A stretch of DNA of 64,000 nucleotides from Candidatus Bathyarchaeota archaeon (GTDB taxonomy: Archaea > Thermoproteota > Bathyarchaeia > 40CM-2-53-6), in assembly GCA_963833125.1 (NCBI GenBank), contig CAWHWX010000012.1, forward strand, positions 32,001-96,000. Direction: 5' to 3'. This document shows positions 5,969 to 15,737 of this stretch, piece by piece. Numbering within the stretch: the first letter of the stretch is position 1; each line of letters opens with the position of its first letter. A program made the translations under genes and the position numbers. Under the pieces are notes generated by a model that was given only the letters and a program-made list of their open reading frames with translations, was not told the DNA's origin and searched no databases.

Positions 5969-6022
5969 CGGGTTGGCGTGTTGGCCGTAACCCACCTTCT
6001 GTTTTAGGCGACATTCATCTAA
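5969..6022. repeat. 54-bp direct repeat, displaced att copy (3' end of RNase P RNA gene)
   Basis: cgggttggcgtgttggccgtaacccaccttctgttttaggcgacattcatctaa, identical to 15427..15480. Confidence 0.97.
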
Positions 6023-6906
6023 ACAGCCCGAATAATCCTCTCGTAAGCACTACAGCTTATGGAAATCCTCTCAATCCACTTGAGCTTCTTGACGAATTCA
6101 GTAAATTCTGTAGAGTGGACTTGCAACTTGCAAAAGAGACTATTGAGCGTTACAAAGGAATAATGAGATGCTTCTCGAAATCGTTTCCAAATGATCTAAG
6201 GCAAGCGACAGACTGATGATCTTCGAAACTATATGCTTGAAAAGTACTCTCGATTCTCCACCCAACAGCAGAGCTAACATAATTTGTGGTTTTCGTTGCT
6301 TCTACAGAAGCTTTCTTGGTTCAACAATAACCGACAGTTTTCGTTATCCACGAGCACCCTTCACTCCTAAAGAAGCTCCAAGCACTGAAAACATGAGACT
6401 CTTCTATAGTGCTATCACAAAACCAGTACACAAACTCCTATTCCTTTTGCTTGCAACTAGCGGATTACGTGAGATGGAAATTCTATCTTTACGCTACGAA
6501 GACTTGGACATATCCAGAAGAGCAATCATTCCCAAGAATCATGAAGGTTCAACCAAGAAAGTCGTGGCGCTCTTTCTACTCTCCCGAATGCGATCAACTG
6601 CTAAAAGATCATGTAGCATCGAAAGAAACTTGGCAAGGAAATGAGCAACTCTTCAATCTGCTACCTCAAGGCCTTCGTCACGTCTTCGAGAAGGCGAGCA
6701 AACAGTGTGGATTCAAAATTAAGCCTAAAGATTTGCGAGATTGGTTCGCAGACAGGATGGGCAGTCTAGGCCTTCAAGACAGGTATGTGGACGCGTTTTA
6801 AGGTAGAGCCCCTAAGTCGATCCTAGCTAGACATTACTCTGACTTCAGAGTTGACAAGATGAAAATCGTCTACGAATCAGCCAACCTACGCCTATTTGAA
6901 AGATGA
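5971..6906 (+). pseudogene. Tyrosine integrase C-terminal part (intC), with frameshifts and an in-frame TAA
   Basis: Frame open from the att repeat: ...DEFSKFCRVDLQLAKETIERY; then LLATSGLREMEILSL, STKK, PKDLRDWFADRM, DAF*GRAPKSILARHYSDF (R-K-KxxR-Y catalytic set); no start codon of its own upstream of the core-binding region. Confidence 0.88.
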
Positions 6907-7279
6907 ACGCAATTGACCAATCTACGCTGGCTCAAATGGGCCACCGTCGAAGCATTTCCGAGACAAAGGATTACAGGTTCAGATGCGGTCGATAAAGCTG
7001 GGCAATGTTGCGATAGATGGTGAAGTACAAGGAAAAGGCTGGAAGATGGCCTTGGAGCTGAAGACTCTGCGGGACGATATTACACGCGGGATAGGACAAC
7101 TTGCTGAAGCATTAGCCTACGGGTACAATTGTGCGGCGATGGTTACGACCCAACGTAATGCAAAGGACATTGATTCTAAGGTCTTCGACAAGCTGGGCTT
7201 AATTCTACTAGGTGTGAATGCGAAAGGAGAAGTCAAACTATTTTATCCGACTTATGCGGTTGCGAGTTCGATGGAATAG
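6903..7279 (+). CDS. Small PD-(D/E)xK nuclease-fold protein (5' part frameshifted)
   Basis: IDGEV...ALELK...ITRGIGQLAEA motif; ATG at 6903 overlaps the integrase stop. Confidence 0.65.
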
Positions 7280-7533
7280 CTGTCATTTACCCTTCGTAAC
7301 TGGTCGTAATAAACAAAATTCGATGAGGTAACGTCAACTTGTCGGTTGCTGGATTTTACATTTTGGGTGTAAAGATTCGGTTGCTGGACTCCTACAACCG
7401 CTTGTCTCTGTAGACTCCTTCATACCTCTAGTTCTCATATACTTCGGTTATCACGGTTGGTGCTCGAAAGAAATCCGGTTTCCTTCAATGATGAAGGGGT
7501 TAGATTTGCTTTGAACTGTTAGCCCAACTGATC

Positions 7534-7932
7534 TTGCCAGCAATCAGTTCGTTGTTGGCAGTATTCATTGGGTTCTGGCTTGAGCACCGATCTGTAAAGC
7601 AAATGAATCAAGAACGTTCAAACACATACCTCAAAGGACTCACCAACGAAATTTCAGAAGCAATTGATCTATTGAAACCCAAGCCTCATCCGTTACAACT
7701 CTTGCCGGTTGATCTCTGGCAATCAGCCGTCAATTCTGGCGATGTTGCGCTTTTCCGTTATGAAGCAAGAGAGGACTTACGAAAAGCCTACTTCGCTATA
7801 ATGAAGTGCAACTATCAATTCACTAGAATAAAGGAATTGGAGAAAAATTCTGGATTGAAGCGGATACATCTGAAAAAGGGCAGCGGATTTCAGCGGCTTG
7901 GCGTGCAGAAACAGACCAAGCTGATTACATGA
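7534..7932 (+). CDS. Hypothetical protein with N-terminal TM anchor
   Basis: Hydrophobic N-terminus then a helical domain; probably extends further through a frameshift. Confidence 0.5.
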   Translation: MPAISSLLAVFIGFWLEHRSVKQMNQERSNTYLKGLTNEISEAIDLLKPKPHPLQLLPVDLWQSAVNSGDVALFRYEAREDLRKAYFAIMKCNYQFTRIKELEKNSGLKRIHLKKGSGFQRLGVQKQTKLIT

Positions 7933-8045
7933 CCGAAAGCACTCTCTCCTACCTACTGGGTCTTTCTAAGAAATCATGGTTCATTGAGGCAATCAGGTAC
8001 AAGCCCGACTAAGTTCGATTTATCAATATTTGCTATTTTTTCGTC

Positions 8046-8435
8046 CTATGGAGGTCCGAATTTGCTTCCTGCTTCGGAAATCAGCTGATTAAGAACGAAT
8101 ATCGTATTTTCGATAACGATTTCTACTGGCTTCTGCGGGTAACCTTGGAAATGAGCAACCACTAGAGCGCTTGGAACCGGAACTGGATTAACATGTGGGG
8201 GAACTGGTGGGAAAGTCGAGCTAGTGATGACGATTGTTCCTGACATATTAACTGCGTCGTGTAGACTCACCAGATAATGATAATCCACTGATGCTCGATG
8301 TGCTTCGATGTGTCGAACCTTCAAGAGTACTGATGCGTCCTTATTTCGCCCAATTGTTCGGCGCTTCTTTTGAGACCACGCCAAGAAATCTATGGCCTTT
8401 TCATTCTTCGTGGCTTTTGCTTTTGACTCAAACAT
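8046..8435 (-). CDS. Hypothetical protein (possibly partial)
   Basis: 129-aa ORF within the island, no recognised motif. Confidence 0.45.
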   Translation of the reverse strand: MFESKAKATKNEKAIDFLAWSQKKRRTIGRNKDASVLLKVRHIEAHRASVDYHYLVSLHDAVNMSGTIVITSSTFPPVPPHVNPVPVPSALVVAHFQGYPQKPVEIVIENTIFVLNQLISEAGSKFGPP

Positions 8436-13589: not shown

Positions 13590-14119
13590 CCTTCTGCCCA
13601 ACTCAACCTTAACGCAGTTAGCCGAATCAACTTATGAGGCGCAATGTCGCCATTATGACATCTTTGACGTTTACGAAATTGCCCGAGGATACAACTCTAA
13701 ACGGGCGCATACATGAAAATCCCCTTGGTAACTAGGAAGCACAAGGTGATTATGAAAGAGATAAAACTCGTCCTCAATACTAATCCTCTTTCTTGGTGCC
13801 ATTCAGCCTCAAGAATAGGCTCTAGGCGATCTCGGAGCACAAGATGACATTTTACGATTGATTTACCGAACCTACGACAGATTGCGAGGATTGCAGAGTT
13901 CGGAGTTCAGCGCGAAATTGCCCATTGCCCTCATTTCCTAATTACGAGTGAACATTGAGTTCTAGTGTACGGCCACCAGATAATTACTAAGATGGAGGCC
14001 TATCGGAATAGAGATAGAAGAAAAAAGGGAAAGGAAGGTAATACCATTGTCTATAATGGATATATCATGTCTGTATAGGTATAGAACCAATCTCTGTAGG
14101 CGTTTACGGCTTCACTGAA

Positions 14120-14641
14120 TTAGGGAAGCTCCGCCCACAAGGCCTGCTGTACTCTGTGTTCTGAATCTCTGTCTCTTGTCAGTACCTGCGGTGGAATCAT
14201 AACCGCGTTGATATGTTCTTGAATCAACAACGGTTGTACATGAGTCGGAATAGGTGCTGTAATCAACAGCAATTTGCATGGTGCAGTCTGATATGATTCG
14301 TATCTTGTTAGAATGTACAGCTTAGTCCTGGTTGTATTTGGCGGCTGCCCCCAGTTCTTTGCCTCTATTACAACGACTATTTGAGAATCAATACTAACTA
14401 TGAAATCAGGTGTATGTGACTCAGGATCATGCGTGTTTGCTCTTAGCCAGAGTAAGTCAACGATTGGCCCTTCTCTTGTAAAGTACCGAGTTGCATCTCT
14501 AACCGCTGTTGCCTTTTCAGGTTTCGCATAATCTGTCACAGAATATTTGGTTGCAAAGTAATATTGCAATAATGGCCAAAGCATTTTTTCTAATATTTCA
14601 CCTTTCTCTTGAACATCTAACTGCTTCATACTCTTTCTCAC
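14120..14641 (-). CDS. PD-(D/E)xK restriction-endonuclease-like protein
   Basis: GEILE...HTPDFIV......IEAKNW motif. Confidence 0.75.
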   Translation of the reverse strand: MRKSMKQLDVQEKGEILEKMLWPLLQYYFATKYSVTDYAKPEKATAVRDATRYFTREGPIVDLLWLRANTHDPESHTPDFIVSIDSQIVVVIEAKNWGQPPNTTRTKLYILTRYESYQTAPCKLLLITAPIPTHVQPLLIQEHINAVMIPPQVLTRDRDSEHRVQQALWAELP

Positions 14642-14841
14642 CCCCTTGTTATTGTAGCCGCGACAAGGAGTTACGATAATTCTTGCGGTCAGAGCTCAAA
14701 CAAATGTGCGCTGCCGCTTGCACAACAATGTAATCGGGACGGCTGCTACCCTAGTATAGGGTGGAAGTTGCATATAAATCTATCGCTATTATCTAGTTTA
14801 AGTATCTAACCTTAAAATCTAGTCTGCACTACACGGTTGTT

Positions 14842-15113
14842 ATGTCGAAACCGAACATTGAGCACCTCATACTCTACGAGCCATTACATAGGTTGCCGAA
14901 AGATGGCATTAGACGCAGAACAACAAAATATGACAAAGTATTGGCAGACCGAAAAAAGTGCCCAGAAAACTCGTCTTCAACGATGAAGAAAAAGCAACTA
15001 ATGTCTACGTAGCTCTAAGAGTGCGAATCAGAAGGGACGGTGAAACTCTCCAAGTTAGGAAAAGAGGCTTAGAAGTCTACGTATTTGCGCCACTGCGGTA
15101 TGAAGGCGGCTAG
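14842..15113 (+). CDS. Small basic hypothetical protein (frameshifted)
   Basis: Manual translation MSKPNIEHLILYEPLHRLPKDGIRRRTTKYDKVL... then FNDEEKATNVYVALRVRIRRDGETLQVRKRGLEVYVF; lies upstream of intN. Confidence 0.45.
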
Positions 15114-15209
15114 ATTATCAGCAGCTAGGATAAGTCACGGAATGAAACCGGCCAAGATAGGTCACAGTTTCAGGGCAAAGGGCATCTCTACAAGGCGGAG
15201 ATATGAGTA

Positions 15210-15480
15210 ATGCGAAAGAAGCTAACCCTTCGTGTTGACAGCGATCTTGTTCAGCAAGCGAAAGCTCTAGGAATTAACCTAAGTCGGTTAACTGAGAAGG
15301 CAATTGTGGCTTCCATCGGAAACCGTACGTACATGCACGTACAGAACGACATTAGCAGGATGGTTCACATAGAAATGCAACCAACTCAAAATGAGTCGAA
15401 GTCAGTTAATGAGTTAGATAATGAGTCGGGTTGGCGTGTTGGCCGTAACCCACCTTCTGTTTTAGGCGACATTCATCTAA
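15210..15480 (+). CDS. Integrase N-terminal part (intN) with RHH/CcdA-like DNA-binding domain; ORF continues antisense into rnpB to 15602
   Basis: MRKKLTLRVDSDLVQQAKALGINLSRLTEKAI (ribbon-helix-helix pattern); reads through att as GWRVGRNPPSVLGDIHL in the same frame as intC. Confidence 0.8.
15427..15480. repeat. 54-bp direct repeat, att copy within the intact rnpB
   Basis: Identical to 5969..6022. Confidence 0.97.
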
Positions 15481-15737
15481 TCGGGATACCCGCACCTCCG
15501 GCGGGAGGTCATTGGCGCCTATTATCCCTTTCACGACGTGGGCGGGCATTTCACCCTTACCTCCAGCCTCATCAACGCAAGCGCATCATCTTCCGCGGCT
15601 AGCGGAGGTTTCTTTCTGCGCCCTGACCCGACCTCTCAGTCGGCATCTCACGATGCCACGCTTCCGCCACGTGGATGGAGTTTCCTCAAGCCCATCATAC
15701 ACCGGGCCCGGAGTCGCTCACCAACTCGCCAACCCAC
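15427..15737 (-). ncRNA. rnpB: Archaeal RNase P RNA
   Basis: Minus strand has P1 (GGGUUGGCG../..CGCCAACCC), GAGGAAACUCC, GCGCAGAAA, GGGUGAAA, UAGAUGAAUG and AACAGAAGGUGGGUUAC conserved regions; about 310 nt. Confidence 0.93.

Follow-up and report, generated by a model that had tools for sequence, protein, structure and literature searches.

An apparent mobile element at the 3' end of the gene for RNase P RNA in a Bathyarchaeota-labelled archaeon, with its attachment site inside the integrase gene

Introduction

Integration of mobile DNA at the 3' ends of tRNA and transfer-messenger RNA (tmRNA) genes is textbook knowledge, and Williams reportedly described genomic islands and prophages at such sites in 2002. 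The catalytic RNA of RNase P, encoded by rnpB, is generally regarded as essential. The locus described here raises the question whether the 3' end of rnpB can serve as a chromosomal attachment site (attB) as well. It lies in a 64,000-nucleotide stretch (the window) of contig CAWHWX010000012.1 of the Candidatus Bathyarchaeota archaeon assembly GCA_963833125.1, where two copies of a direct repeat enclose 9.4 kb of DNA beside rnpB.

In type I or 'suicidal' integrases, the attachment site of the element (attP) is located in the integrase gene (int), and integration leaves an N-terminal part, Int(N), at the target gene and a C-terminal part, Int(C), at the far end of the element (Badel et al., PMC7253208). 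Statements on this and the other cited works refer to the portions of their text that were covered. Here, we describe the locus and its counterparts in related genomes, from which we conclude that the 9.4-kb stretch is very probably an integrated mobile element with the 3' end of rnpB as attB.

The repeat and the RNase P RNA gene

A preliminary description of the window had reported a perfect 54-bp direct repeat around 9.4 kb of DNA and had recognized in it the 3' end of an RNase P RNA on the minus strand. Both statements hold. A repeat search of the window recovered the two copies as identical in 54 of 54 positions, a pair expected by chance in 64 kb with a probability of about 1e-23 by our own arithmetic. 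A longer span of 59 nucleotides (nt; 5964-6022 and 15422-15480) is 97% identical, with two mismatches among the five bases to the left of the 54-nt core. The bracketed DNA has a lower GC content (0.42-0.46) than its flanks (0.47-0.51). The features concerned are:

5969-6022: attL, distal copy of the 54-bp attachment sequence (att), antisense to the rnpB 3' end; encodes the integrase linker peptide
15427-15480: attR, proximal att copy; 3' terminal part of the functional rnpB
15434-15729, minus strand: rnpB (RNase P RNA gene), full length, RF00373

Membership in the archaeal RNase P RNA family is indicated by a full-length covariance-model match at the right copy: Rfam cmscan places RF00373 (RNaseP_arch) at 15434-15729 on the minus strand with 178.1 bits (E 3.3e-51; model positions 1-288 of 288), above the gathering score of 84, and relatives from the same genus give full-length matches of 161-188 bits. 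In this copy, 47 nt correspond to model positions ~242-288, while the other 7 nt lie in an extended P1 helix formed by the inverted repeat 15417-15442/15721-15746. The left copy holds only a fragment of rnpB (~5976-6131, 21.9 bits). No tRNA gene was found across the whole window. A third partial repeat (8896-8923, 28 nt, 71-75% identity) was judged to be due to chance.

An integrase gene split by its attachment site

The preliminary description had placed a tyrosine integrase next to the repeat. An integrase is indeed present but not simply adjacent: att lies inside its open reading frame (ORF), the gene is split, and Int(C) is broken. The two halves and their conserved partner genes are:

15210-15426, plus strand: Int(N), N-terminal ribbon-helix-helix (RHH; CcdA-like) domain; abuts rnpB
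5969-~6906, plus strand: Int(C) pseudogene, SAM-like core-binding domain and tyrosine-recombinase catalytic domain
6918-7279, plus strand: ORF115 homolog, conserved partner of Int(C); frameshifted at ~6945, remaining ORF 6983-7279
14836-15092, plus strand: ORF106 homolog, conserved gene upstream of Int(N); split over two frames

Translation across the junctions yields no start codon for the coding sequence directly to the right of attL, and the ORF that begins at 15210 runs through attR and, antisense, into rnpB as far as 15602. When 15426, att and 6023 are joined in silico, one continuous frame results, which encodes the N-terminal RHH domain, a linker read from att, antisense to rnpB, that contains …GWRVGRNPPSVLGDIHL…, and the SAM-like core-binding and catalytic domains. 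The same architecture of CcdA, SAM-like and catalytic domains is found in unsplit homologs from the protein collection (P0078, P0082, P0085, and P0105).

The RHH domain of the window Int(N), a sequence 63-68% identical to the Int(N) of metagenome contig L063 and genome G004, matches PF07362 (CcdA; 1.1e-7, 32.5 bits, cutoff 22.4). The broken Int(C) piece at 6216-6644 reaches 19.8 bits with PF00589, which is below the cutoff (27.1), while in the intact relatives L063 Int and G004 Int(C) the tyrosine-recombinase catalytic domain is recognized by PF00589 (30.7 and 31.1 bits) and these proteins also pass the cutoffs of PF13495 and of PF16795, the Pfam family 'Archaeal phage integrase' (39.6 and 37.8 bits, cutoff 27). 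In a phmmer search of PDB, the XerC-like recombinase 4a8e was the best match (5.7e-8).

The integrase is of the SSV type (type I, 'suicidal'), with att within its own ORF. The attachment site is internal both in the virtual junction and in the ORF of L063, and the split halves flank the element in G000 (the window genome), G004, and G022, where attR adjoins Int(N) and attL adjoins Int(C). The target differs from that of the SSV type, being rnpB instead of a tRNA gene. The pNOB8-type arrangement, in which att is separate and int stays intact after integration, is not what is seen here, where att is in frame within int. Integration into the 3' end of rnpB would split int, with Int(N) placed beside rnpB and Int(C) at attL, at a distance of 9.4 kb, and an intact rnpB would be rebuilt at attR, since attP and attB would be identical; att would supply the linker that connects the RHH domain at the N-terminus to the SAM-like and catalytic domains. 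This recombination chemistry we infer for the window element.

Empty and occupied rnpB sites in related genomes

RF00373 was searched in 40 relatives and the loci were compared with the window. In G019, the site is empty: homologs of window 4608-5152 (84%; blastn against L013 1-547) and 15743-16465 (82%) stand on either side of a bare rnpB, the flank gene and the RNA 3' end being ~78 nt apart, and the intergenic alignment extends to window position ~5222, where the att of G019 begins. An empty site had been foreseen, though with rnpB directly adjoining the 5555-5947 gene; rnpB instead adjoins the homolog of the 4900-5154 gene. Two further empty sites are found in G003 and G007, where the flank gene lies ~43 and ~249 nt from att, respectively.

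Occupied sites show the same target. In G004, whose flanks are syntenic with those of the window, rnpB is followed by Int(N), 15.6 kb of DNA and another copy of att, to which an intact Int(C) of 315 amino acids (aa) without stops is joined. The window and G004 elements share only Int(C) with ORF115 (87%) and Int(N) (80%). In G022, Int(N) is located at rnpB and att with Int(C) on another contig. Int(N)-like relics adjoin rnpB in G013, G002, and G006, while G010 retains a 22-aa scrap of Int(C); in each of these four genomes, att occurs just once. Of 17 genomes of the genus, counting G000, in which the flank downstream could be assessed, 6 have Int(N)-like coding sequence directly at the 3' end of rnpB (G009, with a flank cut by a contig end, is not counted). 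Conserved core synteny of 6023-15426 across many of the genus genomes is not seen. The preliminary description proposed that the 3' end of rnpB serves the element as attB and that the gene is preserved intact. This is supported by the full-length right copy, the empty sites and the independent related elements at the same site. As judged from these sequence comparisons, the element is a member of a small family within one Bathyarchaeota-labelled genus, in which sister species are hit at the same target.

Int(C) sequences of more than 60% identity are confined to G000, G004, and G022 in an order-level search of 105 genomes. A class-level sample of G000 and 150 other genomes, these latter all outside the genus of the window, searched with RF00373 and stricter filters, gave no further partial second rnpB copy.

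Some further rnpB loci are worth recording. The att and Int(C) contig of G022 (L060, G022:C108), with archaeal rnpB att, has a record named Candidatus Acidiferrales bacterium, although the genome is placed in the same archaeal genus, and this is probably a mislabel. In G014 (L039), G017 (L040), and G002 (L036), 2.1-3.9 kb of unshared DNA with no recognizable Int(C) separate the 3' end of rnpB from the conserved flank gene, which suggests further decayed occupants of an rnpB hot-spot. In L006 (G040:C39), from a different family, a 60-aa fragment at 1181-1360 shares 55% identity with the C-terminus of Int(C). It is located ~140 nt upstream of the 5' end of rnpB, away from the 3' att, and may be a relic of another integration event. 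A double rnpB match in G107 was rejected as an att duplication: in L079 (G107:C6:88000-100288), two diverged full-length genes (~60% identical; 197.5 and 191.9 bits) lie on the two sides of a 16S-23S rRNA operon, all on one strand. They may be paralogs or an assembly chimera, and no integrase signal was noticed there.

Covariation of the attachment sequence with its target

Antisense translation of the rnpB 3' ends across the relatives yields host-specific variants. In G013, the antisense of rnpB reads GRRVGCNPPSVLGDIHLI, which is the exact N-terminus of P0004, an Int(C) 61% identical to that of G004, and the attL of G004 bears the single-nucleotide polymorphism of G004 itself. At the level of the sequences compared, the att peptide tracks the rnpB of each host.

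Unsplit relatives of ~40% identity carry the linker WWAGPDLNRRPLARKA at the same position, and the antisense 3' end of the tRNA-Val(GAC) gene in the genome of the window translates into WWAGPDLNRRPSAG. The alignment of this linker with antisense tRNA-Val scores 74, vs. 18 for the sense-strand control, in a comparison that covered 7 parsed tRNA records. In the order-level homolog L049, the start of Int(C) abuts a tRNA-Val gene. Since the broader family has a tRNA 3' end at the linker position where the present clade has the rnpB 3' end, we infer a switch of target from tRNA to rnpB, the direction of which is read from an unrooted comparison.

Metagenome copies and signs of tandem integration

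A metagenome search with the clade-specific alignment A2 confirmed 3 of 132 candidate stretches. Contig L063 (6805 bp) begins within an Int(N), the final 22 codons of which continue in frame through att into an intact Int(C), followed by ORF115, cargo, ORF106, Int(N), att, and ~60 nt of rnpB. The natural ORF formed by the Int(N) 3' end, att and Int(C) comprises 335 aa and is open at its 5' end. The terminal repeats of 122 nt are 92% identical, which rules out the overlap of a circular assembly, and L063 represents two related elements in tandem or else a chimera between free and integrated variants. Whichever of these holds, an uninterrupted Int(N)-att-Int(C) frame exists in nature, to judge from this contig.

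On the left side of the window element, two segments can be distinguished:

4511-5222, plus strand: native chromosomal flank, ORFs 4511-4870 and 4900-5154 with intergenic DNA; in G019 it runs straight into the rnpB 3' end
5223-5968, plus strand: extra DNA of ~746 bp, includes ORF 5555-5947 (130 aa); last 16 nt resemble an Int(N) 3' end; absent from G019

The genome of G004 has a stretch similar to the 3' end of Int(N) to the left of its 'attL', and 16 nt of the window (5953-5968) are homologous to it. ORF 5555-5947 has no match in Pfam and no tblastn match in the loci of the relatives, and a sensitive search of 4800-5968 for a degenerate att gave only words of 6-8 nt. Because the native flank ends at ~5222 and the segment has this 16-nt Int(N)-like tail, 5223-5968 is probably the remnant of an older tandem element. 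The loci of L063, G004 and the window all look, in their sequence, like a tandem state or its remains. Tandem integration that rebuilds an intact suicidal int 'has not been observed', according to the covered text of Badel et al. (PMC7253208).

Decay of the window copy

DNA alignment with the intact G004 copy reveals +1 insertions in the window Int(C) at ~6211, ~6250, and ~6558, as well as a CAA-to-TAA change at 6799-6801, and the frame walk (1, 2, 0, 1) is the same against L063 as a second intact reference. The partner genes are affected too: the ORF115 homolog has a +1 indel near 6945, and tblastn with ORF106 of L063 matches 14836-14976 and 14961-15092 in different frames. The independent metagenome copies L064 and L065 are also frameshifted. 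No other integrase of the rnpB-targeting family is present elsewhere in G000.

Frameshifts relative to intact single ORFs in G004 also occur in the chromosomal part of the window, at ~1140, 2950-3008, 18057, and 36336. One of the genes concerned, the urocanase gene (17334-18990, minus strand), is split into two ORFs by the frameshift near 18057, which lies outside a homopolymer. The four genes reflect either assembly indel errors or real pseudogenes.

Alternative explanations

Several observations weigh against an integrated element that uses rnpB as attB. Excision or integration of the element has not been observed, and no circular or free form was found, an exact 40-nt att giving 0 matches in viral contigs and an Int(C) search there returning no relative. 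The L063 junction could stem from a tandem array or from chimeric assembly and not from a free attP, and the ~746 bp to the left of attL have no clean explanation. Chains annotated as SSV1-type 'Probable integrase' (4dks, 3vcf, 3uxu) were matched only weakly by phmmer in PDB (E ~0.4 over 40 residues). The assembly is not free of indels, with ~4 chromosomal frameshifts vs. G004 per ~28 kb of aligned coding sequence, and part of the lesions in int could be sequencing errors. Pfam, PHROGs and PADLOC recognized no replication, capsid or conjugation gene in the window cargo, which fits a locus with no mobile element at all, where local duplication or mis-assembly produced the 54-bp repeat and the genes in between are strain-specific DNA of an ordinary kind. 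Such an explanation is exceedingly improbable, since each half of a split integrase sits precisely at one repeat copy and the two form one frame when joined, the same architecture recurs in the independent assemblies G004, G022, L063, and L064, and G019 has an empty site. Hardly any credence can be given either to an element of the pNOB8 type (type II) or lambda-like kind, with att outside the integrase gene and a merely coincidental coding overlap. The closer sequence similarity to Xer-like recombinases than to SSV1 Int speaks for it, but Int(C) has no start codon downstream of att, the RHH-bearing N-terminal exon is located at the opposite end of the element, and the unsplit relatives combine RHH, an att-like linker and the SAM-like domain in a single ORF.

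Within the reading as an integrated rnpB-targeting element, it has to be considered whether the window copy is still active. Frameshifts and stop in Int(C), ORF115, and ORF106 would then be consensus errors of the assembly, and the element could be excised as soon as Int is made, for instance by way of a circular or tandem intermediate. The chromosomal frameshifts, that of urocanase included, are in line with this, as is the perfect preservation of the att copies. However, four indels fall within the ~1.3-kb module, where ~0.2 would be expected from the background (a ~20-fold excess, Poisson P ~5e-5 by our arithmetic), another lesion is a substitution that creates TAA, and just one of the four sites examined has a short A-run. 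The frameshifts in L064 and L065 are as expected for split 'suicidal' genes (PMC7253208), and a split int, even if free of errors, cannot be translated as a single protein. An active copy is unlikely. The indel excess, the TAA substitution, the frameshifted L064 and L065 and the lack of a second family integrase in G000 lead us to regard the window copy as a likely case of an immobile, decayed relic, which is probably fixed unless a related element supplies the integrase in trans.

Recombination module and cargo

The members of the family have a recombination module of ORF106, Int, and ORF115 in common, while the cargo is swapped. ORF115 (115 aa) is always found beside Int(C), with other copies in L063 (1007-1354) and L032 (5379-5726). 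It has no Pfam match, but its AlphaFold model (pLDDT 90.3) shows a PD-(D/E)xK fold, for which the best Foldseek matches are 2okf and 2inb of the XisH family (E 2.6e-5 and 5.2e-5; TM 0.67 and 0.61; 14% identity). These 'fdxN element excision controlling factor' proteins are followed by other PD-(D/E)xK nucleases. From the modeled fold, ORF115 is possibly a directionality or excision-control factor.

In the two best-preserved relatives, the cargo consists, as far as sequence matches tell, of defense systems. G004 carries a complete Type I restriction-modification system (HsdR, M, S) and a DUF2130 protein. L063 carries a SIR2-family protein (PADLOC Aga_SIR2, 6.5e-21), a RelA/SpoT-domain protein (PF04607, 1.5e-18; PADLOC PDC-S33), and a C2H2 zinc-finger protein. 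Annotation of the window cargo with Pfam, PHROGs, PADLOC, and one Atlas query yielded only DnaJ and zinc-ribbon domains, with a Bathyarchaeota hypothetical cluster as the Atlas lead. The cargo comprises:

7345-14835: variable cargo, not shared with G004 or L063
7534-7932, plus strand: cargo ORF
8046-8435, minus strand: cargo ORF
8664-9203, minus strand: cargo ORF
9412-9936, minus strand: cargo ORF
10480-10794, plus strand: cargo ORF
10842-11363, plus strand: DnaJ-domain protein
11225-12733, plus strand: zinc-ribbon protein
12564-13589, plus strand: zinc-ribbon protein
14120-14641, minus strand: cargo ORF

The ORFs at 10842-11363, 11225-12733, and 12564-13589 overlap on the plus strand and could represent one or two longer genes that frameshifts have interrupted.

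Relation to known systems

The mechanism is known from type I integrases and from tRNA/tmRNA islands; the difference is the target gene. As in SSV-type systems (SSV1 Int, pTN3, pT26-2), attP lies in the int ORF and int is split to the ends of the element, att encodes a peptide that serves as junction or linker, a structured RNA gene is targeted in its 3' part and restored, the split halves decay to pseudogenes, and the target is switched within the family (PMC7253208; PMC8371274). The pT26-2 family uses 18 tRNA genes (PMC7253208), whereas the window element targets rnpB. The host is labelled Bathyarchaeota, whereas these two papers, in the text covered, deal with hyperthermophiles. The window family further differs in the N-terminal CcdA-like RHH domain and the weak similarity to SSV1 Int, as well as in the conserved XisH-like gene beside int, the pT26-2 module being described as devoid of recombination directionality factors (RDFs). 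With tRNA/tmRNA islands the element shares a tyrosine integrase and a block of identity over the 3' end of a small stable RNA by which the gene is reconstituted, but its target is a ribozyme gene of ~300 nt.

A precedent for such a target is phage phiEf11, which integrates into ffs, the gene of the 4.5S RNA of the signal recognition particle, in Enterococcus faecalis and was presented as novel in 2025, the known non-coding RNA targets being given in that paper as tRNA/tmRNA and csRNA (PMC12540744). Both systems use an essential non-tRNA small RNA gene as attB, but phiEf11 infects bacteria, its core measures 27 nt and its integrase is unsplit, while the window element is archaeal and has a 54-bp core in rnpB and a type I integrase. 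In thaumarchaeal mobile genetic elements, whose hosts are mesophilic archaea, small cryptic integrated elements, tandem integrations and variable cargo are likewise found; 68 have been mapped, of which tRNA genes hold 39, protein-coding genes 14 and intergenic regions 15 (Krupovic et al., 2019; PMC6563490).

According to the preliminary description, this target is not known for archaeal elements. In agreement, RNase P or rnpB does not occur in the main text, as covered, of that survey (PMC6563490; supplementary tables such as Table S2 are outside this scope) or of the review of archaeal recombinases (PMC8371274), nor in the covered text of the Bathyarchaeia virus paper (PMC10848311), and a limited full-text literature search, with supplements and subscription journals outside its scope, found no report of integration into rnpB. 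The matches for 'RNase P RNA gene' concerned rnpB as a phylogenetic marker.

Implications

Site-specific integration would extend, by this element, to the ribozyme gene of RNase P, by means of an integrase type that destroys its own gene on integration. A wider account, which we place just on the probable side, holds that a type I lineage exchanged the tRNA 3' end embedded as its attP for the 3' end of rnpB; that rnpB is a recurrent hot-spot in this genus, where small elements with no recognizable replication or virion gene shuttle defense systems (Type I restriction-modification, SIR2, RelA/SpoT-like); that the locus preserves the tandem arrangement, predicted but reportedly not observed so far, where an intact hybrid int is restored by another insertion; and that the XisH-like protein is a candidate directionality factor and rnpB a new class of attB. 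The replacement of a tRNA-derived by an rnpB-derived linker at the same position of the protein would be a concrete natural example of a target switch, and type I integrases would operate in Bathyarchaeota-labelled lineages, moving defense cargo there. If ORF115 acts as proposed, it would be a directionality factor in a family described, in the text covered, as being without RDFs.

A new attB class in rnpB would be invisible to island finders anchored on tRNA genes, as the preliminary description anticipated: Islander searches only tRNA/tmRNA genes, and TIGER sorts sites into tRNA/tmRNA, protein-coding or intergenic (PMC12424338, in the part covered), so that an rnpB site would not be labelled as such and comparative finders would call it 'intergenic'. 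Combined with an intact Int (from L063 or G004), the 54-bp rnpB att is a candidate tool for integration in archaea without genetic systems.

Neighboring genes

An rRNA operon lies ~5 kb to the right of rnpB. The 5S gene is not adjacent to it, and the 16S and 23S genes occupy 20720-25498, separated by a spacer of ~176 nt without a tRNA gene.

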